Part shown: in pieces, positions 11,360 to 59,106 of the stretch
How the letters are laid out: the number at the start of each line of letters is the position of its first letter
Position numbering within the stretch: position 1 is the stretch's first letter
DNA from: Candidatus Bathyarchaeia archaeon
GTDB lineage: Archaea; Thermoproteota; Bathyarchaeia; Bathyarchaeales; DTEX01
Length of the DNA stretch: 64,000 nt
Reading direction: 5' to 3'
NCBI GenBank assembly: GCA_038817885.1
Contig: JAWAZE010000005.1
Span: 1,097 to 65,096 of the forward strand
The notes under the pieces: generated by a model
What the model was told of the DNA's origin: nothing
Databases searched by the model: none
Seen by the model: only the letters and a program-made list of their open reading frames with translations
Made by a program: the position numbers and the translations under genes

Positions 11360-11368
11360 TATTGATCA

Positions 11369-11920
11369 CTATTCTGACTCTCTAATTTTATCCAGTATCT
11401 CTTCGGATATGATTTTTGGGAGAATATTTCTATTATCCCATCTTACTTCAATTATCTTTACGTCCTCTCTTCGTCTTATCATTTCGGTGAAGGGTGTTTT
11501 AGCCCTCCAATGAATTGTTCCCAAGACAACCTTTTTGCTTTCTAAAGCTCTTAAAAAAGCGTCTTTAAAGGGCTCGGAATATAGCTCCATTGGGCCAACC
11601 TCGTCAATAACCACGACGTCAGCTTCCTTACAGCCATTCAATATAGCTTTTGCGCCAATCCGCTCTAAGTCCTCTAAACAAACTCTATATTTGCCTACTT
11701 GCGGGCCACTTTTATGGGTAACGTGTGCCAGTATACCCTCAACGTTACCTAGGAGATCTATTATTTTGAAGCCAACCCTTACACCATCCTTCAAGATCTC
11801 TTGACTAACCATTCCGCCAACTTTAACATTCTTCTCTCTTAGATAGTCTACAACTCTTAAAACAATCGTTGTCTTTCCCGTTCTCGGCGGCCCAGTCAAG
11901 AAAATGTGCCGTTTACTCAT
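11369..11920 (-). CDS. Nucleoside-triphosphatase, THEP1/NTPase_1 family
   Basis: Walker A GPPRTGKTT, Walker B VVVIDEVG, about 180 aa as is typical for the family. Confidence 0.75.
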   Translation of the reverse strand: MSKRHIFLTGPPRTGKTTIVLRVVDYLREKNVKVGGMVSQEILKDGVRVGFKIIDLLGNVEGILAHVTHKSGPQVGKYRVCLEDLERIGAKAILNGCKEADVVVIDEVGPMELYSEPFKDAFLRALESKKVVLGTIHWRAKTPFTEMIRRREDVKIIEVRWDNRNILPKIISEEILDKIRESE

Positions 11921-11944
11921 AATAAGTAGCTCCTAAATTTAAGA

Positions 11945-12412
11945 TTAAAACTGCTTTAAAACGTCCTCCTTCTCCATTATCGTGCCGCAGTAGTGGCATT
12001 TGAGTTTAAGCGGCTCCTCACTCTCAACATAGAATATAGATTTTACTGGTTCATTCTCACTATTAGATATACACGCCGGGTTAATGCACTTGACAATCCC
12101 ATGAATTATTTGTGGCAGCTTAACCCTCTGTTTCTCGACAACCCTATAATTTCTTATTATGTTGATTGTGGCATGTGGAGCTATGAGCGCTATCTTGTCA
12201 ACTTCTTCTGGCTTTAATTCCCTTCCCTCAATCTTCACAATATCCTTTATCTCGAGCTTCTGGCTTGGAACATTCATGGCGATCGTAATGATGCCCCCAC
12301 TCCGGCCATCAATCCCCAGAATTCTAATAACATTTAAAGCGTGACCTCTCGTTATATGATCTATAACAGTCCCATCCTTAATCTTCGAAACCCTAAGGGT
12401 TTTCTTAGCCAT
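11945..12412 (-). CDS. pyrI: Aspartate carbamoyltransferase regulatory chain
   Basis: [15 protein letters not shown] allosteric domain and a C-terminal Zn domain (CINPACIS...CHYCG). The start is taken at the internal ATG. Confidence 0.85.
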
Positions 12413-12632
12413 CTCATAACACCAAAACAGCTTAACAACATTTATTATAAAAAGCATTTCTAGCATATTCTTTTAAAAGGGTAATGATTTCATTTAAGAA
12501 AACGCGTCAGTCTCAAGACCATTTCCAATTCTCCATAAAATATTTATAGCGGTTAATGTAATGTTGATATCAATGGTGATACACAAAATGTTTCATCCCA
12601 TCTTTCTATCCTTTAAACATTGGATGAGACAC

Positions 12633-13145
12633 ATGGCTTCTGTGCCAAAGGGTTTTTTGCGATATCAGGTACTTGAGCTTTTAAATGAGAGGCCGCTTTC
12701 AGGCTCGGAGATAATGGATGAAATAGAGAGGAGGACATGTGGGGTCTGGAGGCCCAGCCCAGGCTCTGTTTACCCACTTCTCGCCTGGCTCCATGAGAGC
12801 GGCTATATAACTGAGGTTCCTACGCAAGAGGTTGGTATAAGGCGGTACGCCCTTACAGAGAAGGGTAAACAGCTCTTGGAGGGGCAGCGAAGAATGAGGG
12901 AGCGAGCCAGAGGGGGATGGAAGATTTTCGCCCCTCCCCTTCTCTGCACTTTATGGTTACGTATTCCCCCAGAAGAAGCGGAGAAGCTACGAGTGGCTGT
13001 AAGCCATTTTATAAGATCCCTTTTTAACCTTTGCCTGGATCTGGAGACAAAGTTTTCTGGGGATGCCCTCAATGAAGTATTGAGGGTTTTAAATGAAGCC
13101 GCCCAGAGATTTGAAGAGATGGATAGAAAGTTGCTGGGTGAGTAG
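12633..13145 (+). CDS. PadR-family transcriptional regulator
   Basis: wHTH pattern LRYQVLELLNERPLSGSEIMDEIE...SPGSVYPLL..L...G. It lies immediately upstream of the ABC genes. Confidence 0.75.
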   Translation: MASVPKGFLRYQVLELLNERPLSGSEIMDEIERRTCGVWRPSPGSVYPLLAWLHESGYITEVPTQEVGIRRYALTEKGKQLLEGQRRMRERARGGWKIFAPPLLCTLWLRIPPEEAEKLRVAVSHFIRSLFNLCLDLETKFSGDALNEVLRVLNEAAQRFEEMDRKLLGE

Positions 13146-22623: not shown

Positions 22624-23325
22624 TCAAATGGATCTAAATTTATTTTTTCTCTTTTCTAAAACACTTAGAAAGTGTCTTACGTCGGCATAAGTTTTCTCGT
22701 ATATATGTGCGCTGTTTGTAAAATCTATGTAGGGGCCAACCTCCACGCCTATCTTTTCAGCTATTCTTTTTTGGAGTTCCGTCATTGCAAGCATGTTCAT
22801 GTGCATTGCTCTAAAGATGTCCCTACTCCTCCAGCACGTATGCATGATGAGCTTTCCACCCCTTACTGTGCACCATATTCTCTGGAGGCATGGCGGGGAT
22901 TCAGCCCACATGTCTCTCTTGGGGACCCAAGTTATCGCCTGCGCCCTCCTCGAAAAATTAGTCTTAAATAACTTTTTGATAATATATTCTATCTGGTTTA
23001 TTCCCTCTGGCGGATAATTAAATAGCCGTTCATGATATGTGTAATGTATCTTCCCATCCTGAAGAGCCCAATCGAGACTCCCCTCTAGAACCTCACTAAT
23101 ATATTTCTCCAATGAGTTCCTTATGGCCGTGAAGACATCACCTTTATGAACTCTAGGTTCAGCAAACGGTTCCTCAACAACCACAAGTAAGCCTAAAATT
23201 TCCTTGCACTTTTCACCATACTCTGTAGGAACTTCAATACCGTCCTCCCAACACTTTATTACGCTTTTCTCCCAAGCCTCAGATACAGTATACGCTCTGA
23301 TCAAAACGCCGTAAGACTCATACAT
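22624..23325 (-). CDS. thyA: Thymidylate synthase ThyA-like (short archaeal form)
   Basis: SRRAQAITW, PPCLQRIW (candidate catalytic Cys), RSRDIF...N and SAHIYE motifs; 233 aa. Confidence 0.7.
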   Translation of the reverse strand: MYESYGVLIRAYTVSEAWEKSVIKCWEDGIEVPTEYGEKCKEILGLLVVVEEPFAEPRVHKGDVFTAIRNSLEKYISEVLEGSLDWALQDGKIHYTYHERLFNYPPEGINQIEYIIKKLFKTNFSRRAQAITWVPKRDMWAESPPCLQRIWCTVRGGKLIMHTCWRSRDIFRAMHMNMLAMTELQKRIAEKIGVEVGPYIDFTNSAHIYEKTYADVRHFLSVLEKRKNKFRSI

Positions 23326-33315: not shown

Positions 33316-33391
33316 AATGAGACTAATGGAAATAAATAAGTAAAGTTTTTATCTCGTTATTGATTCAACGGTGAGAATTGGAGGAATTAGT

Positions 33392-34285
33392 TTGAAGATT
33401 GTGGGCGGACCAAGTTCCCTAAACTTGGCCAGAAAAATAAGCGAAATCCTAAATGCCCCACTCATCAATACTAGGATAAAACGTTTTCCTGACGGGGAAT
33501 TTTATTTTAAGTTTGAGGAGAAGGTCTCCGGGGAGCATCTCATAATAGTACAGAGCCTGGAGCCCCCGCAGGACCTACACGCCATGGAGTTGTTTTTAAT
33601 GCTGCATACTGCAAGAGAACTCGGCGCGGAGACGATAAGGGTCTTCATTCCATACCTTGCCTACAGTCGGCAGGATAGGCGGTACCTTGAGGGCGAATGC
33701 TTAAGTTCGGCTGTAATAGCGGAGATCATGGAGAACCTTGGCGCAGACGCCCTATACACTATTGACGTGCATAATGAGAGAGTGCTGAGGATGTATAATA
33801 TCCCAGCCCATAATTTAACGGCCTCCGGTGAAATAGCGAAATACTTTGCTAGGAAAGAATTAAAAGATCCTGTTGTTATAGCGCCCGACAATGAAGACAT
33901 GGCTAAGAGGAGGGCTCAGTACGCTGCCAAGGTGCTTAATTCCGAGTGGGATGCCCTAGAAAAGAGGAGGGATCGTCATACTGGAGAGATAATTACCCTT
34001 TCAAAGGAGCTAAATGTTCATGGTAGGGATGCCGTCATAATAGATGATATAGTGAGCACAGGCAAAACCGCAGCGAACGCCGCAAAAATACTTAAAGAGC
34101 AGGGCGCCAGAAGAGTCTTTGTGGGAGTGTCACATCTCCTACTTATGGAAGATGCCGAGAAAATCATTATGGAGAGTGGAGTTGAAGAAATTGCCGGGAC
34201 TGATAGTGTCACAAATAAGTATGCAAAAATTTCCGTTGCACCAATATTTGTGAGGGCTTTAAAAGGAGAAGTAGAACAAATATAA
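33392..34285 (+). CDS. prs: Ribose-phosphate pyrophosphokinase
   Basis: RFPDGE, YLAYSRQDR and the PRPP loop IIDDIVSTGKT. The TTG at 33392 follows ggagga; an alternative GTG lies at 33371. Confidence 0.9.
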   Translation: MKIVGGPSSLNLARKISEILNAPLINTRIKRFPDGEFYFKFEEKVSGEHLIIVQSLEPPQDLHAMELFLMLHTARELGAETIRVFIPYLAYSRQDRRYLEGECLSSAVIAEIMENLGADALYTIDVHNERVLRMYNIPAHNLTASGEIAKYFARKELKDPVVIAPDNEDMAKRRAQYAAKVLNSEWDALEKRRDRHTGEIITLSKELNVHGRDAVIIDDIVSTGKTAANAAKILKEQGARRVFVGVSHLLLMEDAEKIIMESGVEEIAGTDSVTNKYAKISVAPIFVRALKGEVEQI

Positions 34286-46110: not shown

Positions 46111-47043
46111 TTATTTCTTTGGAAGGAACTCCTCAACTACTAATTTAGCAAGCCTTATTTTATCCTCTAAGGTCCTCATTATAGTATCAGTTGAAATCAC
46201 TTTTATTCCAAGACTCTCTATTTCATCCTTCTCTCCCTCGTCCGCGCGGTCTATTATGAAGGCGCTTAGAAAATCTCTATATAAATATGCTACTGAATAT
46301 GCTGAGACCTCTAACCCAAGCCCCCTCATCAACTTGTCTGCAGGGCCCTTTATCGGCATCCCTGACACTATTGGGCTTATGGCTACTTTATGGGCCCTAC
46401 TAGCTCTTAGAGATTCCCTTACACCTTTAATAGATAATATTGTACCTATGCTCACAATTGGATTGCTTGGGCATATAATTATTAATTCGCTGTTAAGTAT
46501 CGCTTCAATAACACCATCAGCAGGCTTAGCGGTCTCAACTCCCAAGTATTTTACTCCTAAAACCTTATCTTTAGCTTCCCTCTTAACTAGGTACTCTTGG
46601 AAGTGCATTAATCCAGCATCGGTTTCAATCCACGTCTCAAATTTATCGTCTGTCATTGGAATTATATTAGTCCTCACACCCAAGCTTCTACATATCTCTT
46701 TCGTCGCCTGGGAGAGCTTTAGACCCCTCTTTAAGAGAAGTGTTCTATGAATGTGTGTTGCAAGGTCCCTATCGCCTAAATTGAACCACGTTTCATAACC
46801 ATATTTCCGCAGCATCTCTAAACAATAAAATGTGTCGCCTCTTATACCCCAACCCTTCTCCTCATCAACTATGCCAGCTAAAGTGTAAGTGATTATGTCA
46901 AGGTCTGGTGAAATATGTAGCCCATAAAGTTCTATGTCATCTCCAGTATTAACAATAGCAACTAACTTCTCTTCGGGGATCACCCTAACGAGTCCTGAAA
47001 GAAATTTTGCGGCACCCACACCACCAGCTAAAGCCGTTATCAT
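46111..47043 (-). CDS. cofD: 2-phospho-L-lactate transferase CofD (F420 biosynthesis)
   Basis: ITALAGGVGAAKFL, NTGDD and ISPDLD motifs. With the start at 47043 the gene abuts the stop of the upstream gene. Confidence 0.85.
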   Translation of the reverse strand: MITALAGGVGAAKFLSGLVRVIPEEKLVAIVNTGDDIELYGLHISPDLDIITYTLAGIVDEEKGWGIRGDTFYCLEMLRKYGYETWFNLGDRDLATHIHRTLLLKRGLKLSQATKEICRSLGVRTNIIPMTDDKFETWIETDAGLMHFQEYLVKREAKDKVLGVKYLGVETAKPADGVIEAILNSELIIICPSNPIVSIGTILSIKGVRESLRASRAHKVAISPIVSGMPIKGPADKLMRGLGLEVSAYSVAYLYRDFLSAFIIDRADEGEKDEIESLGIKVISTDTIMRTLEDKIRLAKLVVEEFLPKK

Positions 47044-47678
47044 AGGCTTATGCCCCAACAATCCTTAAAGGCTATTTCCTTAAGTAGCTTTCTGGGCGGG
47101 GGCTCAGGGCCCTCGGCCGGATAGCCAACCGTTATTAAGGCTTGGGGTTCAACGTCGCTGGGCATTCTTAAAATTCTTCTAACGGTCTTTTGACAGAAGA
47201 GGGGTGCACAGAACCAGCATGCGCCCAACCCCTCGGCATGAGCAGTCAAAAGGATGTTCTGTATAGCGGCAGCTAAGCTTTGCGTCGCCATTAAATGCTC
47301 AAACCTCTGCCTCCGCTTATCAGGATACCTTTGCATATCCCTCATGGTCATCGCGGCAACTATTAAGACTGGTGTCTCAGAAAAACGCTTAATAGACTCT
47401 TTAACCAGTCTTTTTGAGTCTTCTGGGGGGACACCATCCTTCCTAAGATCCCTCAGCCAGTCTGAGGCCATTGCTTCAGCCAACTTTCTCTTCACCTCTG
47501 GATCAATTATTACTATAAAGCGCCAGGGTTGAGCATTATGAGCTGATGGGGCCCACCTAGCAGCGTCAATTAGCCTTAAAATAAGATCGTGGGGGACGCT
47601 TTTAGATAAAAATGATCTTATGCTCCTTCTACCCTTAATAATATTTTCCAAGAGATCATTCTTTAACAGCATTATCAC
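47040..47678 (-). CDS. Nitroreductase-family protein coupled to cofD (FbiB C-terminal-domain-like?)
   Basis: RRSIRSF and AARWAPSAHNAQPWRF motifs, TVGYPA at the C-terminus; directly abuts cofD. Confidence 0.7.
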   Translation of the reverse strand: MIMLLKNDLLENIIKGRRSIRSFLSKSVPHDLILRLIDAARWAPSAHNAQPWRFIVIIDPEVKRKLAEAMASDWLRDLRKDGVPPEDSKRLVKESIKRFSETPVLIVAAMTMRDMQRYPDKRRQRFEHLMATQSLAAAIQNILLTAHAEGLGACWFCAPLFCQKTVRRILRMPSDVEPQALITVGYPAEGPEPPPRKLLKEIAFKDCWGISL

Positions 47679-50227: not shown

Positions 50228-51031
50228 TTATGGAGCCTCAACCTCTTTTCTCTCCACACTCTTCTGTATTCTCTTCGTGACATGTCTGGGCAGAGCTATG
50301 TCCTCTTTCCGCATTTCAACTGGGCCGATTATCGTTAGCCCCCTGCCCGGTAAAATCATTATCTCATGTAGTTGTAGGTTATGGTTTGTCTGTCTCATCT
50401 TCTCGATTAAAATGTATCGCCTTAGAATACCATTTCTGATGAACCTCCGAAACCTTATTATGCCGTCAGATACATGCTCAACGCCCCAACCGAAAGCCTC
50501 AGAGGTTGTTATAGCATATTGTGAAGTTGCCATAATAGTAAAGTCCCATTTTGCTAGAACCTTCTTCACGAAATATGAGTATCTTCTGGCCATTGCGGGC
50601 TTATCAAGCCAGAACGCAGATAAAGAATCTATTACTAGGCGTGCCCTGCCATATCCGAGAGTCTTTTTTGCCTCAATAATCTTATTTATGAGCTCTTCAA
50701 CATCTAGACTTTGAAGTGACCATTCATCCTGCCGCCCCATTAAAGCGTCAATTATTATCATCTTCTTTTCGGCAATTCCCTTTGAGAAATCGAAGCCGAA
50801 CTGGGATGCCTGCCTAATAATCGATTCCCTGCTCTCCTCTGTTGTAACATAAATGCATTTGTCCCCCTCATTAACGCCTTGGGCAATAAAATGTATGCAA
50901 AGTATTGTTTTCCCGGTGCCCGGCTCACCAGTAATAGCTATCATAAAGCCCTTAGGTATTCCGCCCTCAAGCATGGCATCTAATTCTGAAATACCGGTTG
51001 ATAATCGCTCAATGCGCATAAATTTTTTCAA
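50228..51031 (-). CDS. KaiC-like/RecA-superfamily ATPase (single domain)
   Basis: LSTGISELDAMLEGGIPKG, Walker A GEPGTGKT, Walker B LVIDSLS. Confidence 0.85.
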   Translation of the reverse strand: MKKFMRIERLSTGISELDAMLEGGIPKGFMIAITGEPGTGKTILCIHFIAQGVNEGDKCIYVTTEESRESIIRQASQFGFDFSKGIAEKKMIIIDALMGRQDEWSLQSLDVEELINKIIEAKKTLGYGRARLVIDSLSAFWLDKPAMARRYSYFVKKVLAKWDFTIMATSQYAITTSEAFGWGVEHVSDGIIRFRRFIRNGILRRYILIEKMRQTNHNLQLHEIMILPGRGLTIIGPVEMRKEDIALPRHVTKRIQKSVERKEVEAP

Positions 51032-51058
51032 CTCTTAATCGAGTAATGCTTTAAAGGG

Positions 51059-51691
51059 TTAGTAATGGTAGTGTTGGAATAGATTTGGCTTTATATTTAA
51101 ATATACTAATGGCCCCTTCTCTTTAGATAACCTCGTAATTTTTGAGCTAACCATGTTATATATACTTAATGGATCCAGAACTATAAGATCATCTTTATTA
51201 GTTCTCTGTAAGCGCTTCGCAATCTCCTCAACTATTAGATTATCAGCTATGAATTCTGTCATGCAAATCTCGCCATATTCTACAAGCTTTCTAATGGTCA
51301 TACTCCTCAACTCGTTTTTCCAGTCCACTTCTTGCAGTATTCTTCTAGCCTTCTTGAGTCTCTCAATGTGATCCCGTGGCATCTCAAAATTCGTTGAGAG
51401 AATCCTGACGCGCTCTCGCCACTTTTTAAGCCACATGTCAGCCCAAAAATTTAATAGAATTTTGAAGTCTCTCGGGTTATCCTTAAAAATTTCTTCAAGT
51501 CTTCCATAGATCACTTTTGTATTATCGATGTCCATCTTAACCTTTAGCCATGTCTCTAAATCTTTTGAAGCATAAATGATCATCTGATAATCTGTAGTAT
51601 AGGGCTTAAACTGCGGAATAAAAGTCTCAAATTCTTTAACTAGGAACCCAAACAGCTTGCTTCGAAAACCCATCACACTCATTAGATGCAC
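51059..51691 (-). CDS. Hypothetical protein upstream of the KaiC-like ATPase
   Basis: 210-aa ORF with coding-like composition; 27-nt gap to the KaiC-like gene. No recognisable motifs. Confidence 0.4.
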   Translation of the reverse strand: MHLMSVMGFRSKLFGFLVKEFETFIPQFKPYTTDYQMIIYASKDLETWLKVKMDIDNTKVIYGRLEEIFKDNPRDFKILLNFWADMWLKKWRERVRILSTNFEMPRDHIERLKKARRILQEVDWKNELRSMTIRKLVEYGEICMTEFIADNLIVEEIAKRLQRTNKDDLIVLDPLSIYNMVSSKITRLSKEKGPLVYLNIKPNLFQHYHY

Positions 51692-51762
51692 TCACACATT
51701 ATTTTTATATCCTTAACATGAATTTAAAAGTTGCTTGAAGTAGATCTGACTAGCGTTTTTGT

Positions 51763-52677
51763 CTAGCGGAGGTTATCGGGCAAATCAGATAATCTTGGGA
51801 GCCCATCTCTAGCTCCCATCTTTATTAAGCATCTTGAAGCAACAAAGTTTCCTAAGATCCCGCACTCTTTGAGACTTTTCCCTTTAAGAAGTCCGTATAT
51901 GAAGCCAGCGCAGAAAGCATCTCCTGCCCCAGTTGTATCAACAACCTCAACTTTAAATGGCTCTAACAGATGGCTCTCTAAACCATTTGTAACGTAGCAA
52001 CCCCTATCACCCAGCTTAACCGCAACTATCTTCACGCCCTCCTCAAGAAGGATTTCAGCTCCCCTCCTATAATCATCTTCACCAGTTAAGAGGCGCACTT
52101 CACTCTCATTTGGTAAGAGGGCATAGCACTCCTTAATTATCGGTCTGAGACCCCTCAAACCTTTGCGGGCATAAATCGCTCCTGGATCAAGGGTTACTTT
52201 TATATCCCGTGGAAGATTTTCTAAAAGATTTTTCTGCGCCTCAAATGGTGTCTCACCAGCGAATGATGTTAAATGTAGTATTTTAGCGCCCTTTACGTAC
52301 CCTAAGTTAACCTCATTATACTCTAATGTATTGTTTACTCCAGGATCCAGATAGAGAGCCCTATTACCCTTTTTATCCACAAAACCTATAACCGTCCCGC
52401 TCCTACTGCTCTTTGAAACAACCACCCCTCCCACATCTACACCTTCATCTATAAAAGACTTAAGTAAGAGTTTTCCCTCCCTATCCTCCGCGACTTTGCC
52501 AACATAGCCAACTTTTACGCCAAGTCTCGCCAAACCCACGGCAGTATTGGCGGCGGAGCCGCCCGGTGCCTCCCTGAAATCAACTATTATGCTTTCCTCA
52601 TCGGCTCCAGCCAGTCTATCAACCTTATAAAGCTTATCCATGTTTAAGGCGCCGAAGCAAATAACCTCTAGGCTCAT
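51763..52677 (-). CDS. PfkB-family carbohydrate/nucleoside kinase
   Basis: GGSAANTA N-terminal motif and [10 protein letters not shown]-terminal motif. There is a 4-nt overlap with the upstream Ftr-like gene. Confidence 0.85.
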
Positions 52678-53609
52678 GGGAACAGATCCCTCAGATAAAT
52701 TTTATATTTGCCCAATCTGCCGCCATAATTTCCAGCAGAGACTCTAACAACTCCCTTAACCGAGGAAACAGCTTTTATTCCCCTCTTCATAGCCTCTTTA
52801 ACAGCGTTTAGGGTGAGCCCATTTATCACTATCTCCGGGATATATCGCACACCCTCAGGGACCTTTGATTCTGGGCCGAGCTTATTCTTAAGTGAGGGGC
52901 AGTAGGGGTGGTTTGTTGTTGGACCTATATGTGGAAATTTTGTTTCAGGCTTTGATCCTGCCGAGCATATATCGAATGGCGTAACTACTCCTTCAACTTG
53001 GCTTATAGCCCTTAAAGCCTTTTTCCCAGCCTCCAGCACAGCTCTCTTTGTTCGGCACATGTACCAGAAGTTTCCGCCCATGACCCCACGCCCATAACCT
53101 AAATAACGCTCAATTTTAAAGTCTGGAACCATTATTGGGATAATTATCATCTCCCTGCCGTATAAATTCTCAACCCACTCATAGCCGTCGCCGCAGTGTC
53201 CTATAAGCTCCATCGCATTCACCCTACCTATTGGATTCGGGCAGGCGTTGAAGACCGTTGTAAAAGGCTTGACAAGAATATCCTGCCTAACTCTATAAGA
53301 AAACTCTCTGTAAAATCTTCTTACAATATCATCTAAGGTTTTTCTCTCATCTATTCCACTCCAAAATTGTAGTATAACGCCGGGGCGTCTATCCGGGGTC
53401 TCGTCCCTCGGAACCCAACGCTCCACCCCACTCTCTATCCGACCTATCACAGTTGAGGGGGTTGCCGTCGAGTCTTCAGCAGCTTTTTTAAGGGTCCAAG
53501 TATCATCTGCGGTGACAAGTATCCTAAAATAAAGTCCCTCAAAAGTCTCCGCATAGGTATCCTCAATAAATATGTTCAAGTTAATCCCCAATACAGAGAA
53601 ATGGGGCAA
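52674..53609 (-). CDS. ftr: Formylmethanofuran:tetrahydromethanopterin formyltransferase family protein (Ftr-like)
   Basis: [40 protein letters not shown] and VINGL...VKEAM...[20 protein letters not shown] closely follow the remembered Ftr sequence pattern. Confidence 0.8.
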
Positions 53610-53798
53610 AAATAATAATTAATGCTTTTCGGCGCTCCCACTCTAGATGGTTATCCTTCTTTTATTCTCCTCTCGCTCTTCCCTCGCTTTGTTACGTAGC
53701 GCCTTGTCAAGGATATCGCCAAAAGGTCTTCCATAAAAGGAGATACTATCTTTAGTGTTTCCGTCTAAAAATTGTTTCAAAGGAAAACTTATAATATT

Positions 53799-54875
53799 TT
53801 AGCCGAGGGATCCTATGGCCTCCCCTCTGACAGTTTTCCTGAAAGCTGTGCTCTCCTGTATTAGACGCTCCATGTTGCTTGGTGTTATCCTCTCAACCCA
53901 GGGCGCCCTATCTGGGTGAAGTTTTCTAAGGTATTCAAGTAGTGTTAGGTCACAGCAGCCTTCTAATGAAGATATATCCCAGTTTTCCGCCAAGCTGAGT
54001 ACATTTTCTTTACCATTCCTCTTAAACTGCTCAGCTAGCACCGCTAAAATAATTGCGTTATGTGATAGGACCGCTACCTCAGCCTCTCTAATAGCATATT
54101 GATTCCCATTAAATGATATTGTTAGCCCACCGTTCTCTCTGACTAGCCTAAATGACTCTACATCAGTTATACTGTCACCAACGTAAATGACCGATGAAAG
54201 CCTTCCATAAAGTGATGAGACTATCTCCTCAACAGCCCTCGCCTTCTCGTATCCGCCAACTGGGTTTATCTCTTTTAACGCTCGGCCCACCTCCATGTTT
54301 GTTATCTCCTCCCAAAAGATCTCGTCAAGGCGCCTAATAACCCTCTGAGTCTCCAGCGGCAGATCCTCCAGCGATTTAGCACCCGCTGTGACCTCTATCA
54401 TCGGCATACTGGTTATCTCCTCCTTTAATTCCCTTAATCTCTCAATCTCTTCCCGCGGGGTCTCGTACCTATCTATATTTATTCTTGTGCAGTAAACGTT
54501 TTCTTTGGGGAAATCTATAGTTTTGCAGAGGGCTTCTATATATGGCTCATAACTTGTACTCACGATGAAAGATGGCATAATCGATCTAATGTAGCGTAAT
54601 GCCTCGGGGGATCCAGGCATCAACAATAGTGTTTCCCTTGAGAAGCGTCTCATGATCTCGTTGGTCGCGCCATAAGCCTTTAAGAAAGGGATTATAAGCT
54701 TAAGTGTGTCGCCAGCTTTGTATCCCGGCCTCTTAATGATATCCGCCAGAACATCATCATACCTACTTATTATAGTAAAGAGTTTATCGCCATTAGGTAT
54801 AAGCCAGCTCGTGATCTCGAACGCGTTATCGTTCTTTGAAACCGGCCCCTCACAGTCAGTTATGAAGATTGGCAT
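53799..54875 (-). CDS. HAD-like protein (EhaR-like by recollection)
   Basis: N-terminal FITDCEGP (a degenerate HAD motif I) and a later YVGDSITD (motif IV-like). 16-nt overlap with the upstream PurD-like gene. Confidence 0.45.
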   Translation of the reverse strand: MPIFITDCEGPVSKNDNAFEITSWLIPNGDKLFTIISRYDDVLADIIKRPGYKAGDTLKLIIPFLKAYGATNEIMRRFSRETLLLMPGSPEALRYIRSIMPSFIVSTSYEPYIEALCKTIDFPKENVYCTRINIDRYETPREEIERLRELKEEITSMPMIEVTAGAKSLEDLPLETQRVIRRLDEIFWEEITNMEVGRALKEINPVGGYEKARAVEEIVSSLYGRLSSVIYVGDSITDVESFRLVRENGGLTISFNGNQYAIREAEVAVLSHNAIILAVLAEQFKRNGKENVLSLAENWDISSLEGCCDLTLLEYLRKLHPDRAPWVERITPSNMERLIQESTAFRKTVRGEAIGSLG

Positions 54876-56290
54876 CGCGCCCTCCTCCTTAAGGCCTCCA
54901 TGTGCTTTATACTGCGTTCAATATGCTCCCTTGAAGCTATATCATTTCTATGCCATAGTGCTCCACCCTTAATGGTCTTTATACCCTCCATCGCTATCTC
55001 GCGTGCGCTCTGGATATCATCAGCTATTCCCAGAACGGCGACGGCTCTGGAAGATAACGCGTAAGTCTTTCCATCATCACGTAGCTCCATAGAGCCGGGA
55101 TAAATCCTGATATTATCACCATACTTTTCTGAGAGTTTCTCGGCTTCATATAAAATCACTGGCGTTCCTATTTCACCTTTATTGACCAGATGTGGGAAAG
55201 TGTTTATGTATCCGCCGTAGTTTGGCGGAACCTTATAAATTACCACAGCCGCCTTATTTTCAATATCAATGCGGGTTAAGTTTCCCTCAATCATCCTAAA
55301 GCATATTTCGACGAAATCATCCCTCAATAAGGCTAATATCGGTATTATTTCTGGATCCCCAGGTCTACTATTATTCTCTAGTATCATTGGCCCCCTGCCA
55401 GTATGTATGAAGGCTTCGTAGAAGGGCATCCCCCGCAAACTCGGGTTTGATCCTCCACCCTTAAGTCTCTCAAAAATTCTCTCAATTATTCTCTTCTCCT
55501 CCTCCCAATCCTCAGGCCTCATGAATGGTAAGATATAACTCTTGTCTTTATAGGTGCCCATACCGCCAGTATTTGGTCCTCTATCCCCGTCAAAAGCCCT
55601 TTTATAATCTCTTGTTTCAGGTAAGGGGACTATGTGCTTTCCATCGCAGAAGGCTTGGTAGCTCGACTCCTCACCATCTATCTTCTCTTCAACTATGACT
55701 GGCCCAACCTTAAAATTCGCCAGAAAATGCTCTAAAAGATCTTCACGAGTGTTAAAGTGGTCCCCCCAGACCCCCACACCCTTACCCGCCGCTGGCGCAT
55801 CTGGCTTAACGGCCACCTTGTTGTCGAGTTCACCAAGCCACGCATATAAGTCCCTCTTAACATCTTCTATACTACTGTAATCTTTTGGGTTGAACACTTT
55901 AAACCTTGGGTTCGCTTCCGGAACAATCCCTTGAAAGAGGATCCTTTGTAGAACCTTACTTCTTTCGAGGGCATACTCTCTTGTTGGGCATATCATCGGT
56001 ATACCAATGTTATTCTCGATTAAGTCCCTTATTCCCTCAATTATCGGCTTCTCTGGACCAACTATACCAAAATCTATTTCATCTCTATGTTTCTCAGCAA
56101 ACTTGTATATACTGTTAATGTTGAGATCTGGGATGACAACATGCTCTTTAGCCTTACGAAGATTAAAGGGGTTTCTCTGTCTATCAGCGACGTATAGGTC
56201 AACCTTATATTCGCGGCTTTTCATAAAGGCATCAATCATGGCAGCCTCCCTAGAACCATAAGAAACTACAAGGATGCCAACGCGCTCCAT
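54860..56290 (-). CDS. PurD-family ATP-grasp ligase (divergent phosphoribosylamine-glycine ligase-like)
   Basis: AAGKGV, DGEESSYQAF, DYKRAFDGDRGPNTGGMG and NSRPGDPE are PurD hallmarks. The N-terminal GSGGREHA is replaced by SYGSREAA. 476 aa. Confidence 0.75.
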   Translation of the reverse strand: MERVGILVVSYGSREAAMIDAFMKSREYKVDLYVADRQRNPFNLRKAKEHVVIPDLNINSIYKFAEKHRDEIDFGIVGPEKPIIEGIRDLIENNIGIPMICPTREYALERSKVLQRILFQGIVPEANPRFKVFNPKDYSSIEDVKRDLYAWLGELDNKVAVKPDAPAAGKGVGVWGDHFNTREDLLEHFLANFKVGPVIVEEKIDGEESSYQAFCDGKHIVPLPETRDYKRAFDGDRGPNTGGMGTYKDKSYILPFMRPEDWEEEKRIIERIFERLKGGGSNPSLRGMPFYEAFIHTGRGPMILENNSRPGDPEIIPILALLRDDFVEICFRMIEGNLTRIDIENKAAVVIYKVPPNYGGYINTFPHLVNKGEIGTPVILYEAEKLSEKYGDNIRIYPGSMELRDDGKTYALSSRAVAVLGIADDIQSAREIAMEGIKTIKGGALWHRNDIASREHIERSIKHMEALRRRARCQSS

Positions 56291-56395
56291 AAACCATCAC
56301 TAAAAATAATAATTTATTTTTTAATATTAGAAGAATTCCCCAAAATGGATAAGCCTTTTAAGAGGTCACATTAGAAAAGAGTTCTGGAGAAGATT

Positions 56396-57598
56396 ATGAG
56401 CGATCCACCAGCCATAATCGGAGTTGGTAGAACCAGGTTCGGTGAGCATTATGAGTTAGATCCAGAGGATCTAATTGATGAAGCGGGATTAATGGCTCTA
56501 GAGTCCGCTGGGGTTGAGCGTAAAGATTTGAAAGCATGCTATATTTCAGACTATTTGCTTCAACTTACTAATAAAATGGGCTTAGAAGAGGGCTTTATTT
56601 CGCATCTATTAGAGATGAATATGCCAATTGAGAGGCTGCGGTCGTTCAGCTCGGCGCTAATGAACGCTTGTAATGCAATCGAGGCTGGAAAATACGATAT
56701 AGTCCTTGTCGGCGGAATTGAAAAGATGACTGATAGATGGGGTAAAATAAGGGATAATCTTATGCTCTTCATGGACCGCTGGAGCTATTATGCCGGCGGC
56801 ACACCAGAATCGAATCATGAACTCCTCCTCAGGGAATATATTAAAGAGAATAAAATTAACAGAGCTGACCGAGAAAAGCTCATGCTAACTTTAGCGTACA
56901 TCTCCGTTAAAAATCACCGTAACGCTATATGGAACGAGTATGCTCACTTTAGAAAGGAGATCGATGTTGAGAAAGTTTTAGCAGCTAGGAGGGAGGAGCA
57001 TAAGGTTCTTGGGACTTATGATTTCGCCCCAATATCTGATGGAGCAACGGCCTTAGTATTGGCAAGTTCAAGAAAGGCTAAAGAATATGTCGATGAACCA
57101 ATATATGTGCTTGCATCAGCCCTAGCAACAGACTATATCTCCTACCCCTCTAGACCATATAGATCTGGCTTCATGGCAAGCAGAATAGCAATAGAAAAAG
57201 CCCTGAAAATGGCGAATATAAACTTAAACGACATAAAATTACTGGAAGTATATGATCAATCAACTGTGCTTGAGATGATTTCGCTTGAGGATCTTGGATT
57301 TATCGAGAGGGGGACAGCGTGGATGAAACTTTATGAGAACTTTAAGAACTCTAATGGCTACTATGACCTCTCTGGAAAAGAGGTTTATGTGAATACAAAT
57401 GGCGGGTTAAAAGCTGATGGGAACCCCCTTGGCGCAACTGGTGGGGCCCAGATATTTGAGGTCGTTGAGCAACTTAGGGGTAAAGCTGGTCAGAGACAGG
57501 TGAAACCTAATGGTGACCTACTTTACGGCTGTGTTCAGGAAATGGAGGGTTTCGGAACGAAGGTTTATGTCCATATATTGGGGAGGGAGAGGGCGTGA
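56396..57598 (+). CDS. Thiolase-fold protein (SCP2-thiolase-like) apparently lacking catalytic residues
   Basis: The overall pattern matches archaeal thiolases (GVGRTRFGE, YDIVLVGGIEKMTD, PISDGATALVL, NTNGGLKA.G.PLGATG). However, L81, Y286/Q288 and N343 occupy the Cys, HDCF and GHP positions. Confidence 0.8.
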   Translation: MSDPPAIIGVGRTRFGEHYELDPEDLIDEAGLMALESAGVERKDLKACYISDYLLQLTNKMGLEEGFISHLLEMNMPIERLRSFSSALMNACNAIEAGKYDIVLVGGIEKMTDRWGKIRDNLMLFMDRWSYYAGGTPESNHELLLREYIKENKINRADREKLMLTLAYISVKNHRNAIWNEYAHFRKEIDVEKVLAARREEHKVLGTYDFAPISDGATALVLASSRKAKEYVDEPIYVLASALATDYISYPSRPYRSGFMASRIAIEKALKMANINLNDIKLLEVYDQSTVLEMISLEDLGFIERGTAWMKLYENFKNSNGYYDLSGKEVYVNTNGGLKADGNPLGATGGAQIFEVVEQLRGKAGQRQVKPNGDLLYGCVQEMEGFGTKVYVHILGRERA

Positions 57599-59106
57599 GT
57601 AGTGAGCCGATAGAGAGAAGGGTCACTTATATTGGCGATAGGCTTAAGGGCAGTAAGTGCCCATTTTGTGGGAAAAAATATTTTAAGCCAAAAAGGTATT
57701 GCGGAAATTGTGGTAGAAAGAGTCTCGGAAAGATGGAAGAGATAGATTTCTTTTACGAGAAGGGTGTCCTTGAAACATGTACTATTATTAGAGAGCCGAC
57801 AAATAAGTTTATGAAGCTCGCCCCCTTCATATATGGAATAATATACTTTTATGAGGGCAAAGTGAGAGTTCCTGGCAGATTAACTGACATGATCATTAAA
57901 GGTGATAAAGAGGTAGATTTAGATGATCTTGAGGGCAGGGAGGTTGTGCCAAGGTTTAGGCGTAGATGCTCTGTCGGTAAAAGCGATATTATACCAACAA
58001 TTTCCCTAGCCTTTACCTTTGCCGATGAATATTACCCATATCAGCGATATGAGGTGCTCCGCCCAAATAAAGAATATGAAGTCCCGGGAATAGTGGGCTA
58101 TGGCGTATATGTTTCGAGGTTCAGGATTAAGGAAACTAGCTTAGAGCGCTCAGTTCCATTTATAGACGAGGACGCTGTGACGGCTGCTGTTGAGGCTGGA
58201 AAGATGGCGCTGATACATTCTGGCGTGGACAATAGGTTTGTAGGTAAAGTTTATGTTGGCACAGAATCTAATCCATACGCCGTTAACCCAATAGCCTCTA
58301 AAGTCGCACAAGTCTTAAAGCTTGGTGGAGAAGGTACTGATGGAATACAGGAGGTGGATGCGGTTGACACAGAGTTTGCTTGTAAGGCAGCCTCAAGCAT
58401 GTTTAAAGACGCTATCGCTCTAACATATTATCCTAGAGATACAGTAGAGTACGTGATGGTTATCGGTGCCGATAACGCTCAAGCCGCACCTAGATGCGAG
58501 CCGGGCGGAGAATTAGATTATTTTGTTGGTTACGGGGGAGCAGCCTTCATATTTGGTAAGAAGGATGTTATTGCTGAGGTTGAGGGATGGTGCTCCTGTA
58601 CATCTGATACGCCCGACTTCTGGAGGAGGGATTTAGAGCCATACCCGCGGCATGGCGGCCGTTTCACAGGAGAACCAGCATACTTTAAGCACGTTATAAA
58701 GACTGGTAGAAAGCTTATGGAAAAGATGAGCTTGAAGCCGAGTGATATAGACTATTTTGTCTGCCATCAACCCAACCCAACATTTCCAGTGAGGGCGGCT
58801 ACAACATTAGGTTTTAAGCCGGAGCAGTATCTGCCGGGAATATGTGTAACAAAGTTTGGTAATACTTATTCCTCTTCTTCGTTGATAGGCTTAGCTGCGG
58901 TGTTAGATCAGGCTGAGCCGTATAAAAGGATAATGATTGTTAGTTATGGCTCGGGTGCGGGGAGCGACGCCTATATATTCGTGACAACAAATCAAATTAA
59001 AGATAAAAGAGGTAGACAGAAGTTCACTGTTAGGCATCAATCGGAAAATAAATTTATTGAATACGTTGACTACGCAACGTATAGAATGTTTAAGGAAGGA
59101 CTTTAG
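57595..59106 (+). CDS. DUF35 (Zn-ribbon plus OB-fold) fused to HMG-CoA synthase
   Basis: N-terminal CPFCGKKYFKPKRYCGNCG plus an OB segment. The HMGCS core follows with GTES (Glu), EFACKAA (Cys), CHQPN (His) and GNTYSSSS. The GTG start overlaps the upstream stop by 4 nt. Confidence 0.85.
   Translation: MSSEPIERRVTYIGDRLKGSKCPFCGKKYFKPKRYCGNCGRKSLGKMEEIDFFYEKGVLETCTIIREPTNKFMKLAPFIYGIIYFYEGKVRVPGRLTDMIIKGDKEVDLDDLEGREVVPRFRRRCSVGKSDIIPTISLAFTFADEYYPYQRYEVLRPNKEYEVPGIVGYGVYVSRFRIKETSLERSVPFIDEDAVTAAVEAGKMALIHSGVDNRFVGKVYVGTESNPYAVNPIASKVAQVLKLGGEGTDGIQEVDAVDTEFACKAASSMFKDAIALTYYPRDTVEYVMVIGADNAQAAPRCEPGGELDYFVGYGGAAFIFGKKDVIAEVEGWCSCTSDTPDFWRRDLEPYPRHGGRFTGEPAYFKHVIKTGRKLMEKMSLKPSDIDYFVCHQPNPTFPVRAATTLGFKPEQYLPGICVTKFGNTYSSSSLIGLAAVLDQAEPYKRIMIVSYGSGAGSDAYIFVTTNQIKDKRGRQKFTVRHQSENKFIEYVDYATYRMFKEGL

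Follow-up and report, generated by a model that had tools for sequence, protein, structure and literature searches.

A conserved ehaR-ftr2-pfkB module downstream of purD in Bathyarchaeia as a candidate for glycinamide ribonucleotide formylation

A 64,000-nt stretch of a Bathyarchaeia MAG (hereafter the window) carries four linked genes encoding a PurD, a HAD-fold protein related to EhaR, a paralogue of the formyltransferase Ftr and a PfkB-family kinase (Table 1), raising the question of whether the last three together carry out the step that follows PurD in purine biosynthesis, the formylation of glycinamide ribonucleotide (GAR) to formyl-GAR (FGAR). Neither purN nor purT was found in Archaeoglobi, M. 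thermautotrophicus and its relatives, or M. kandleri, although these organisms synthesize purines (PMC3261824), and both genes are reported as absent from ANME-1, Archaeoglobales and Methanobacteriales (PMC9012536). Ftr2 occurs in ANME-1, Archaeoglobales, M. kandleri and M. marburgensis, but ANME-2a and ANME-2b carry PurN as well as Ftr2 (PMC9012536), such that the complementarity between PurN and Ftr2 is not strict. If the role considered here is correct, the module would supply an enzyme step that has been missing in several archaea since 2011.

Table 1. Coordinates of the four genes and of the intergenic regions at the locus (positions in the window).
Feature	Coordinates	Strand	Details
pfkB (PfkB-family, EhaT-like, ribokinase-type kinase)	51763-52677	-	304 aa
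ftr2 (EhaS-like formyltransferase paralogue)	52674-53609	-	311 aa, maximal ORF, TTG start
ehaR-ftr2 intergenic gap	53610-53798	-	189 nt, sequence read directly
ehaR-like gene (HAD-fold protein)	53799-54875	-	358 aa
purD (GAR synthetase)	54860-56290	-	476 aa
purD / thiolase gene divergent intergenic region	56291-56395	.	sequence read directly

Translation of the ORFs bore out the positions, overlaps and motifs that the initial annotation had assigned to these linked minus-strand genes. The purD and ehaR-like genes share 16 nt (54860-54875), and ftr2 and pfkB share 4 nt (52674-52677). The real start of ftr2 is probably a TTG at 53579 (MNIFIEDTY...), since the resulting N-terminus resembles those of homologues such as MNAEIEDTY; this start would widen the gap downstream of ehaR to ~219 nt. 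Direct reading of the gap revealed an AT-rich TATA-like box at ~53610-53625, probably an internal archaeal promoter, and a second such TATA-like, AT-rich box is found 10-35 nt ahead of the ATG of purD. An Rfam scan of positions 51000-57000 returned no family matches at E<=1. As had also been noted initially, C1-pathway neighbours are absent from the window: Pfam screening of 44 ORFs in the window, the four genes among them, turned up none of fwd, mch, mtd, mer and eha. The only loosely related genes in the window encode CofD (46111-47061), a ThyA-like protein (22624-23325) and PRPP synthetase (33371-34285). No other pur genes adjoin the four genes in this window.

Gene neighbourhoods, proposed initially as a check across archaeal genomes, were compared for 80 related species-level Bathyarchaeia genomes (GTDB), with the identities of pur genes confirmed using NCBIfam models. 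Gene order was found to be conserved, the commonest arrangement being >purF >purD >ehaR >ftr2 >pfkB <purQ <purL <purM. Adjacency of purD and ehaR was observed in 76 of the 80 genomes, the remaining four loci being cut by contig ends, and among 66 loci with enough downstream sequence 56 possess ftr2 and 54 both ftr2 and pfkB; in 10 of the 66, ftr2-pfkB does not come after purD-ehaR. Both purD-ehaR and ftr2-pfkB have a median gap of -4 nt (overlapping in 67/76 and 54/58 pairs, respectively); the ehaR-ftr2 gap is variable in length (median 6.5 nt), and the outer flanks of the four genes vary by lineage. BA2-type loci additionally comprise purP, purC, purE and an IMP-cyclohydrolase gene, PurP already covering AICAR formylation. 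With these additions the cluster covers purine steps 1, 2, 4, 5, 6, 7, 9 and 10, and lacks only PurB and step 3, the GAR formyltransferase, whose slot is occupied by ehaR-ftr2-pfkB. This position in relatives makes the module a testable candidate for the missing archaeal enzyme step. The initial idea that an Ftr paralogue formylates the PurD product thus gains strong comparative support, since in most Bathyarchaeia the module is flanked by purD on one side and by purQ/purL/purM on the other.

The PurD protein, which matches NCBI MAG protein QXX99_03230 at 100% identity, contains the GARS_N, GARS_A and GARS_C domains (Pfam) and scores 246 bits against TIGR00877 (cut-off 288). Aligned with Aquifex PurD 2yw2 (E 3.9e-38), it retains the R-E N-loop, AAGKG, GPNTGGMG and SRPGDPE. 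The motifs first read from the sequence, GPNTGGMG and NSRPGDPE, together with SYGSREAA at 56240-56263 (residues 10-17), were recovered in the translation. Its unusual length was likewise upheld: solved PurDs span 412-476 aa, and at 476 aa it exceeds all of them (412-452 aa) bar 7lvo, also of 476 aa. In human GARS, the N-loop Arg-Glu, an Asp, and the Arg, Asp and Glu of R-x-G-D-P-E were assigned to sulfate/acyl-phosphate binding, ribosyl orientation and glycine binding (PMC2978367); these residues and the B-loop AAGK are all kept here. Furthermore, among the 62 loci that extend far enough upstream, 43 have purD immediately after purF, and the neighbouring PurF of related loci also falls slightly below its NCBIfam cut-off (310 vs 350), indicating that sub-threshold scores are a trait of the lineage. 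The gene is therefore most likely the ordinary purD of its lineage, and we rejected the special divergent paralogue that the initial annotation had described. Nothing in the analysis points to its other suggested substrate, a different ribosyl amine.

Ftr2 matches FTR (E 7e-41) and FTR_C (E 9e-58) in Pfam and passes the NF002554 cut-off (341.8 vs 297), but fails that of the fhcD/ftr equivalog TIGR03119 (227 vs 292.6). It is 36-41% identical to characterised Ftr enzymes, compared with 58-68% among those enzymes themselves across three archaeal classes, and retains the catalytic glutamate (PEIVING vs YEIVING). From its sequence, Ftr2 thus looks active yet distinct, outside the tight group of characterised enzymes. 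The kinase (PfkB E 6e-54, Pfam) has ribokinase as its top NCBIfam model (170 bits; cut-off 300), with ribose-1-phosphate kinase models scoring 142 and 122 bits, and T. maritima ribokinase (1VM7) as its nearest structure. It retains DTTGAGD and the N-x-D motif for the ribose diol (GALNMD), with GGK changed to GGS.

The ehaR-like product begins MPIFITDCEGP, with a motif I of D-C-E-G-P in which Glu occupies the D+2 position. HAD profile matches (Pfam and NCBIfam) were weak; its AlphaFold model (pLDDT 96.7) ranked AF1437 (1Y8A) best among PDB structures, followed by SerB, ThrH and MtnX. Compared with ten other main-clade sequences, archaeal and bacterial, HAD motifs I-IV and D16, YDD39-41, N256, N258, R346 and R350 are conserved. 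The suggested link of the FITDCEGP protein to EhaR agrees with the JGI label on its homologues, ‘energy-converting hydrogenase A subunit R’, and this naming is the basis for regarding EhaR as HAD-like.

EhaR-like proteins are recurrently partnered with non-homologous formyltransferases. In some archaeal contigs, their genes lie immediately downstream of a Formyl_trans_N gene of 272-275 aa, the EhaR-like proteins of these contigs falling in a subclade with a Methanomethylophilaceae cluster among its members. One bacterial contig (L089) carries a PfkB-PurN-like-EhaR trio, whose PfkB is 36% identical to the kinase described here. We also identified fusions of EhaR-like proteins with a PurN-like domain (P0302, with a faint PurU match) and with a weakly PurT-like ATP-grasp domain (P0316 and P0327; E 0.008-0.07). 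For the PurN-like partner, PurN is the best NCBIfam model, and 13/13 top PDB matches are GAR transformylases. To our knowledge, neither the organisms of the Methanomethylophilaceae-containing clade nor the bacterium with EhaR, PfkB and a folate-type formyltransferase use methanofuran or H4MPT. Solitary EhaR-like genes with fully intact motifs were also found in A. fulgidus (AF1437), Deltaproteobacteria and one Aenigmarchaeota MAG, suggesting that the family may act on a more general substrate.

Taken together, these findings modestly favour, on comparative sequence evidence, a reading of the locus as a purine-biosynthesis operon in which ehaR-ftr2-pfkB would be a non-canonical module for the conversion of GAR to FGAR, replacing PurN or PurT. 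From this context we infer what is formylated, by which donor, and what the EhaR-like protein and PfkB contribute. PurD would make GAR, and the other three proteins would together carry out the next step. Ftr2 would be the catalyst, with the glycinamide primary amine of GAR (-CH2-NH2) taking the place of the methanofuran aminomethyl group in the Ftr active site, and a C1 carrier would donate the formyl group, most likely N5-formyl-tetrahydromethanopterin or alternatively formyl-methanofuran. Brown et al. considered methanopterin-bound formyl unlikely as a donor (PMC3261824). According to labelling data as quoted in that paper, purine C8 comes from C2 of acetate in M. stadtmanae and not in M. 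smithii (PMC3261824), a pattern that would be compatible with carrier-bound formyl as the donor if its C1 pool has a different origin in each species. Against this reading, a formyltransferase acting simply on GAR would require no kinase or phosphatase. In the sub-model that we prefer, itself tentative and rather doubtful, gene order would mirror reaction order: EhaR would dephosphorylate GAR, Ftr2 would formylate the riboside, and PfkB would re-phosphorylate it to FGAR, spending one ATP and thereby pulling transfer from a low-potential formyl donor. Alternatively, EhaR might be a phosphate-recognising subunit presenting GAR to the formyltransferase.

Other explanations must account for the same arrangement. 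The genes could be ordinary and merely co-located, comprising the housekeeping formylmethanofuran:H4MPT Ftr that serves the Wood-Ljungdahl pathway in archaea, a ribokinase or nucleoside kinase that channels ribose 5-phosphate into PRPP, and a general sugar-phosphate or phosphoserine phosphatase, with supply of C1 units, ribose and glycine explaining their proximity to pur genes and GAR formylation encoded elsewhere. This would agree with the NF002554 score and catalytic Glu of Ftr2, the affinity of PfkB to ribokinases, phosphoserine phosphatases as the nearest structures to the EhaR model after AF1437, and the several lineages in which EhaR-like genes lack formyltransferase neighbours. We nevertheless consider it unlikely, as it leaves unexplained the adjacency and fusion of EhaR-like proteins with non-homologous formyltransferase types and the ftr2-pfkB overlap in nearly all genomes with the pair; moreover, Ftr2 is distant from characterised Ftr, and an Ftr-like/ribokinase-like pair recurs after ehaR in Methanothermobacter despite its separate Ftr.

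Still less probable is that the module frees formate, or formyl phosphate, from carriers for the purine enzymes that depend on formate and ATP, namely PurP and a PurT-like one whose gene lies elsewhere, in the manner of PurU or of the bacterial formyltransferase/hydrolase complex. The Ftr homologue FhcD of that complex works in formate production (PMC6926001), formate is an essential anabolic purine intermediate of unsettled source in Methanothermobacter (PMC10579436), formate-using PurP shares the cluster at BA2-type loci, and P0302 faintly matches PurU. Yet the module lacks an FhcA/FwdA-type amidohydrolase, the ribokinase-type kinase has no part in such a scheme, and step 3 of the cluster would still be without an enzyme; nor do we know of HAD enzymes that hydrolyse formamides. 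Finally, the trio might belong to the energy-converting hydrogenase Eha, as subunits or in its maturation, or might make methanofuran or tetrahydromethanopterin, both of which are bound by the Ftr fold. Its co-transcription with ehaA-R in Methanothermobacter (PMC3087415) and the naming of homologues as EhaR, a KEGG-derived name, would fit this view; it is very improbable given that hydrogenase genes occur neither in the window nor among the neighbours conserved across the 80 loci, that the module is placed in pur clusters, and that EhaR-like proteins and PfkB are paired with folate-type formyltransferases in the bacterial contig and the Methanomethylophilaceae-containing clade.

The proposed GAR formylation module resembles the folate-dependent PurN and the formate- and ATP-dependent PurT in its proposed reaction, its position beside purD and purL/purM, and the pairing of EhaR-like proteins elsewhere with PurN-like and PurT-like domains. 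Ftr2 is, however, unrelated to either in sequence and fold, and the module differs in its proposed donor, a methanofuran- or H4MPT-bound formyl group, and in possessing two conserved accessory proteins. Ftr2 aligns over the full length with Ftr (1FTR, 1M5H, 1M5S) and FhcD (6S6Y) and shares their two-lobe FTR fold and catalytic glutamate, but it carries an insertion around residues 85-100 and is translationally coupled to a kinase, whereas Ftr and FhcD are free-standing or near C1-pathway genes. The EhaR-like protein and AF1437, a structural-genomics protein of unknown function from A. fulgidus, are members of one family (phmmer E 1.7e-32; Foldseek TM-scores 0.81 and 0.92), and AF1437 shares the D-x-E-G-P motif and every other invariant residue. 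With 308 aa AF1437 is the shorter of the two, at 27% identity, and unlike the ehaR-like gene its gene is not beside ftr, pfkB or pur genes.

The closest parallel in gene content is the last part of the eha operon in Methanothermobacter, which, as the initial annotation correctly stated, contains an Ftr paralogue and a ribokinase-like gene: Ftr-like EhaS and ribokinase-like EhaT follow ehaA-R in the order R-S-T (Kaster et al. 2011, PMC3087415), and EhaR-EhaS-EhaT are the last three eha genes (Tersteegen and Hedderich 1999, as cited in Kaster et al. 2011, PMC3087415). Both the three protein types and their order (HAD-like, Ftr-like, ribokinase-like) match those described here, with roles that are putative in either case, and the proposed orthology is based on naming and gene order. 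The Methanothermobacter trio is co-transcribed with the hydrogenase rather than with pur genes, in an organism with a separate Ftr besides EhaS (PMC3087415), whereas the bathyarchaeal module lies behind purD, within the purine cluster in relatives, and without hydrogenase linkage. A precedent for the preferred sub-model is offered by riboflavin synthesis, in which a HAD phosphatase acts on a ribitylamino-pyrimidine phosphate and riboflavin kinase acts later. There, a 5'-phosphate is removed and later restored around a step on an unphosphorylated intermediate, an analogy for the order of events that the sub-model proposes and one that does not imply homology.

The initial annotation had described four co-directional minus-strand genes, and their coordinates were reproduced exactly (see table), together with overlaps of 16 nt between the PurD- and HAD-like genes and 4 nt between the Ftr-like and PfkB genes, and a gap of 189 nt between the two pairs. 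Each motif it had listed was also recovered, namely SYGSREAA at 56240-56263, GPNTGGMG, NSRPGDPE and an N-terminal FITDCEGP. Pfam and NCBIfam searches upheld the four family assignments, with three of the proteins (PurD, Ftr and PfkB) scoring under equivalog cut-offs. A Pfam sweep of 44 window ORFs, including these four, returned no fwd, mch, mtd, mer or hydrogenase genes, bearing out the earlier remark that C1-pathway neighbours are absent; besides purD, the window ORFs also include no further pur genes. The other ORFs encode housekeeping functions (tRNA synthetases, PolD, Cdc6, GAPDH/PGK and PRPP synthetase), along with CofD, MoaA, a ThyA-like gene, a thiolase and a DUF35-HMGCS fusion. A riboswitch in the 189-nt gap was considered and rejected, as Rfam returned no structured RNA match there at E<=1. 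Translation of the Ftr-like protein (Ftr2) more likely begins at a TTG at 53579 (MNIFIEDTY...), which fits the N-termini of its homologues (MNAEIEDTY..., MKAEIEDTY...); with this start, a TATA-like stretch would represent a putative ftr2-pfkB promoter.

Coordinates of the four-gene locus and of other features observed in the window
Feature	Position	Strand	Remark
PfkB kinase	51763-52677	minus	ORF
Ftr-like protein (Ftr2)	52674-53609	minus	maximal ORF, TTG start at 53609
HAD-like protein (EhaR-like)	53799-54875	minus	ORF
PurD-like protein	54860-56290	minus	ORF
Putative ftr2-pfkB promoter	~53610-53625		TATA-like, AT-rich stretch
210-aa ORF	51059-51691		immediately downstream of pfkB; no Pfam match
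Thiolase	56396-57598		4-nt overlap with next gene
DUF35-HMGCS fusion	57595-59106		DUF35-type zinc-ribbon/OB domain fused to HMG-CoA-synthase-like domain
CofD and nitroreductase-family gene	46111-47678		overlapping genes
Thymidylate-synthase-like ORF	22624-23325		233 aa; ThyA profile matched in C-terminal part only

Several of the surrounding features merit description in their own right. The 210-aa ORF is kept beside the module and a KaiC-like gene in the closest relatives, and lies farther downstream in one related locus (L022). Thiolase, DUF35-type and HMGCS-like proteins, the latter two fused here, are three separate proteins in many archaea, where they form the entry complex of the mevalonate pathway. 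The overlap of a nitroreductase-family gene with the gene for CofD, the 2-phospho-L-lactate transferase of F420 biosynthesis, suggests that the organism makes coenzyme F420. The thymidylate-synthase-like ORF could encode a divergent archaeal ThyA whose C1 carrier is not a folate; alternatively, the gene could be truncated.

The PurD-like protein, which is 100% identical to QXX99_03230 of an NCBI Bathyarchaeia MAG, possesses all three GARS domains (N, ATP-grasp A and C), scoring 48.8 bits for GARS_N, 112 bits for GARS_A and, slightly under the cut-off of 34.8, 29.7 bits for GARS_C (Pfam); it does not reach the TIGR00877 equivalog cut-off (246.1 vs 288 bits; NCBIfam). In human GARS, the active-site residues Arg13, Glu14, Asp217, Arg292, Asp295 and Glu297 serve sulfate/acyl-phosphate binding, ribosyl orientation and glycine binding (PMC2978367). 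Alignment identified these residues and the B-loop AAGK as retained in the window protein, within the segments S-Y-G-S-R-E-A-A, DAPAAGKG, RDYKRAFDGDRGPNTGGMG and NSRPGDPE, while the His and both Gly residues of the GxGGREHA loop are substituted. Among related loci, purF lies directly upstream of purD in 43 of the 62 with enough upstream sequence, and purQ, purL and purM lie downstream, an association with purine-biosynthesis genes that the window itself lacks. The PurF adjoining purD in these relatives is likewise sub-threshold (310 vs 350; NCBIfam), and the low PurD score therefore looks like lineage divergence. The initial annotation had regarded the protein as a special, divergent paralogue, a view that must be abandoned: given the pur-cluster context, the retained active-site residues and a PurF that also falls just under its cut-off, the window protein is most likely the normal PurD of its lineage.

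Scanning one genome per GTDB species identified 565 relatives of the EhaR-like protein, of which the best 80 loci, nearly all labelled Bathyarchaeia or Bathyarchaeota, were analysed by tblastn and ORF clustering. The gene neighbourhood, whose conservation the initial annotation had made a check on its hypothesis, proved to be conserved: purD lies directly upstream of ehaR in 76 of the 80 loci, the other four being cut by contig ends. Where enough downstream sequence was available (66 of these best 80 of 565 loci), Ftr2 was found in 56 and both Ftr2 and PfkB in 54, with ftr2-pfkB missing after ehaR in ten. The median gap is -4 nt for purD-ehaR and also -4 nt for ftr2-pfkB, and the genes are translationally coupled. 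Since protein identities across the same 80 loci drop to 53-62% and the outer flanks vary, the linkage is maintained by selection.

Neighbour-ORF clustering of the best 80 of 565 loci also revealed the dominant order >purF >purD >ehaR >ftr2 >pfkB <purQ <purL <purM, with the identities of PurF, PurQ, PurL and PurM confirmed by NCBIfam. BA2-type loci extend this arrangement with PurP (DUF1246 and DUF1297), PurC and PurE. In one of these, the Bathyarchaeota BA2 locus L018, where PurP, PurC and PurE follow farther on, a stand-alone, 218-aa IMP-cyclohydrolase domain gene corresponding to the N-terminal half of PurH (12089-12745, minus strand) lies between ehaR and ftr2. The cluster encodes purine steps 1, 2, 4, 5, 6, 7, 9 and 10, missing only PurB and step 3, the formylation of glycinamide ribonucleotide (GAR) usually carried out by PurN or PurT, and the module lies between the gene for the GAR-forming enzyme and those for the enzymes acting on formyl-GAR (FGAR). 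No PurN-like or PurT-like gene was found among the annotated neighbour families, several smaller conserved families lying outside the scan. Given this position in the pur cluster, and because the other formylation is already covered by PurP, step 3 would be the natural assignment for the EhaR-Ftr2-PfkB trio as a predicted purine-pathway module.

Other arrangements were also identified. In the sub-lineage of the window (loci L001-L009) the four genes are still together and have moved beside the thiolase/HMGCS genes and a KaiC-like gene. In one locus without ftr2-pfkB after purD-ehaR (L023, 3229-4936), the next genes resemble, by eye, a 5'-methylthioadenosine/purine nucleoside phosphorylase and a purine phosphoribosyltransferase. 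In one Bathyarchaeia subgroup (L033, L039, L040, L044 and L060, ~11075-12055), a membrane-anchored protein of ~325 aa, split in L033, is encoded between ehaR and ftr2.

FTR and FTR_C domains span the full length of Ftr2 (Pfam), and its catalytic Glu is kept, PEIVINGL aligning with YEIVINGL of 1FTR. The protein scores 227 against the TIGR03119 equivalog cut-off of 292.6, passes the subfamily model NF002554 (341.8 vs 297), and shares 36-41% identity with three characterised Ftr enzymes that are mutually 58-68% identical. The kinase possesses the PfkB fold, the N-x-D ribose motif (GALNMD) and the DTxGAGD catalytic motif (DTTGAGD); it passes no PfkB equivalog model, scoring 170.6 bits for ribokinase (TIGR02152; cut-off 299.65). 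Searches with PF00551 and the PurT models (Pfam and NCBIfam) gave no match to any of the four proteins, and the proposal of a GAR formyltransferase concerns the function of the module alone, not membership of the PurN or PurT families.

Many homologues of the HAD-like protein are called 'energy-converting hydrogenase A subunit R' by JGI. Its AlphaFold model (pLDDT 96.7) has the Rossmann-like HAD fold with motifs I-IV, and Foldseek placed it closest to AF1437 of A. fulgidus (1Y8A), followed by phosphoserine phosphatases (SerB), ThrH and MtnX. Residues D7, S106-T107, K211 and D234/D238 are conserved in ten other sequences of the main clade, in which the HAD motifs are intact, as are the D-x-E-G-P, STSY and GDSxTD motifs and, in the cap, D16, YDD39-41, N256, N258, R346 and R350, across both archaea and bacteria. 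In place of the canonical D-x-D, motif I reads D-C-E, and the same ten sequences also carry Glu at +2. A D-x-E motif presumably points to methionine-salvage enolase-phosphatase, an identity we rejected because it leaves PurD and the formyltransferase without a role. Solitary EhaR-like genes whose motifs are intact occur in A. fulgidus, Deltaproteobacteria and an Aenigmarchaeota MAG; the AF1437 locus has no ftr, pfkB or pur neighbours, and the gene contexts in Deltaproteobacteria and Aenigmarchaeota, at locus L096 and around the gene for protein P0316 were uninformative. A homology search seeded with AF1437 returned only hits with organism names from the Archaeoglobaceae.

A profile-free search of 1.84 billion representatives identified 646 clusters of EhaR-like proteins, among which the formyl-transfer partner varies. 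In archaeal contigs of an EhaR subclade that includes a Methanomethylophilaceae cluster, the ehaR-like gene directly follows, and overlaps, a Formyl_trans_N gene of 272-275 aa. On a bacterial contig, L089, an overlapping PfkB-PurN-like-EhaR trio occupies 5344-8286, its PfkB and EhaR being 36% and 44% identical to the window proteins, and in protein P0302 a PurN-like domain is fused with EhaR. For the PurN-like partner, PurN is the best NCBIfam model and GAR transformylases make up the top 13 PDB hits; the catalytic residues N-x-H and Asp are kept. Two further fusions on short contigs, P0316 (L097, 3416-6115) and P0327 (L082, 1026-3911), comprise proteins of 899-961 aa in which a divergent ATP-grasp domain of ~550 aa is fused to a complete EhaR-like domain. 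The best NCBIfam models for this domain are PurT, and its PDB matches, weak and collinear over three motifs, are all PurT (E 0.008-0.07) except one at chance level (E 0.33), which weakly suggests a PurT-like domain. Three kinds of formyl-transfer enzyme, unrelated to one another, thus occur as partners of EhaR-like proteins, and two of them are related to known GAR formyltransferases. Closer inspection of the PurN-paired archaeal subclade (P0344, P0351, P0323 and P0367, from metagenome contigs L084, L085, L087 and L088, always directly downstream of the PurN-like gene) revealed loss of the HAD nucleophile Asp (D7) and the motif IV Asp (D234), with other family residues retained. This pattern suggests a retained physical partnership, and the protein looks like a pseudo-enzyme kept as a formyltransferase partner.

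These comparisons substantially strengthen, without proving, the core hypothesis of the initial annotation, in which the PurD product is formylated by the Ftr paralogue; gene identities, conserved order, pur-cluster embedding and partner switching were observed directly, and beyond these we infer the mechanism. Ftr2 would probably move a carrier-bound formyl group onto the glycinamide amine of GAR, which is chemically similar to the methanofuran aminomethyl group. By analogy with the folate-type partners found elsewhere, the donor would more likely be N5-formyl-H4MPT, with GAR occupying the methanofuran site. A passage of PMC6926001 puts formyl transfer from formyl-H4MPT to the furan amine at only +4.4 kJ/mol. 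Labelling quoted in a section of Brown et al. (PMC3261824) derives purine C8 from acetate C2 in M. stadtmanae, not in M. smithii, which is compatible with a carrier-bound donor. The kinase and HAD protein are the weak point of this mechanism. If gene order reflects reaction order, EhaR would strip the 5'-phosphate from GAR, Ftr2 would then formylate the riboside, and PfkB would put the phosphate back, spending ATP to pull the reaction. Such a dephosphorylate-formylate-rephosphorylate model would accommodate both the N-x-D motif of PfkB and the acidic residues in the EhaR cap. We nevertheless consider it rather improbable that EhaR-Ftr2-PfkB constitutes a third, non-homologous FGAR route operating at the nucleoside level, in which an Ftr paralogue, drawing on the methanofuran/H4MPT C1 pool, would formylate dephosphorylated GAR before its rephosphorylation with ATP. 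Alternatively, EhaR may act as a subunit that recognises the phosphate and brings GAR to the formyltransferase.

Three other explanations were weighed. The Ftr may be a housekeeping enzyme, with the kinase and phosphatase acting as supply enzymes, or the module may make formate for PurP. The three proteins may also be hydrogenase or cofactor accessories, in keeping with the JGI name; this is contradicted by the folate-type partners and by the absence of hydrogenase genes, both from the window and from the conserved neighbours in the best 80 of 565 loci. A role in H4MPT or methanofuran biosynthesis was rejected, since the module resides in pur clusters and, elsewhere, EhaR and PfkB accompany formyltransferases of the folate type. 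Formylation of AICAR by Ftr2 was also rejected, as the same clusters include PurP and the amine of AICAR is an aromatic one.

Gene-order evidence joins the problem of the missing GAR formyltransferase to that of EhaR/S/T and names three proteins, so that two old gaps can be tested directly: which enzyme serves as the missing archaeal GAR formyltransferase, and what EhaR/S/T and AF1437-like proteins do. Should the link hold, the trio would represent a previously undescribed enzyme family catalysing a central reaction of metabolism and would show the route of formyl groups into purines in H4MPT/methanofuran organisms. The widespread annotations 'hydrogenase subunit R', 'Ftr' and 'ribokinase' in Bathyarchaeia and methanogens would then need correcting, affecting metabolic reconstructions that count this Ftr as evidence of the Wood-Ljungdahl pathway. 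Were the nucleoside-level route true, purine synthesis would be coupled directly to C1 carriers that serve the Wolfe cycle and the archaeal Wood-Ljungdahl pathway; such a route would also explain the co-transcription of the trio with the anaplerotic hydrogenase Eha in Methanothermobacter and give AF1437-like proteins a function.

Purine-prototrophic Methanobacteriales, Archaeoglobales, Methanopyrus and ANME-1 are without a recognisable step-3 enzyme, a gap made explicit in 2011 and restated in 2022. In the sections of Brown et al. 2011 that bear on this step, purN and purT were not found in two Archaeoglobi, M. kandleri, M. thermautotrophicus and relatives, and an unknown GAR formyltransferase was concluded to exist (PMC3261824). 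Passages of Chadwick et al. 2022 repeat the absence for Archaeoglobales, Methanobacteriales and ANME-1, and separately describe a divergent Ftr2 paralogue in ANME-1, ANME-2a/b, Archaeoglobales, M. kandleri and M. marburgensis (PMC9012536). Every lineage reported without both PurN and PurT carries Ftr2, a pattern that runs in one direction only, since PurN and Ftr2 occur together in ANME-2a/b. No information on PurN or PurT was found in the supplements of the Methanomassiliicoccales genome paper. Our literature search found no paper giving EhaR/S/T a function, describing an Ftr-type GAR formyltransferase, or linking the missing GAR formyltransferase, Ftr2 and EhaR/S/T observations, and no function has been given to the three genes at the end of the eha operon since their first description. 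The initial annotation had described these tail genes in agreement with the JGI naming of EhaR homologues and with the part of Kaster et al. 2011 (PMC3087415) reporting EhaS and EhaT genes co-transcribed with ehaA-R in Methanothermobacter. From that description and naming, the HAD-Ftr-PfkB trio of the window corresponds in type and order to EhaR-EhaS-EhaT of Methanothermobacter, with putative orthology drawn from naming and synteny.
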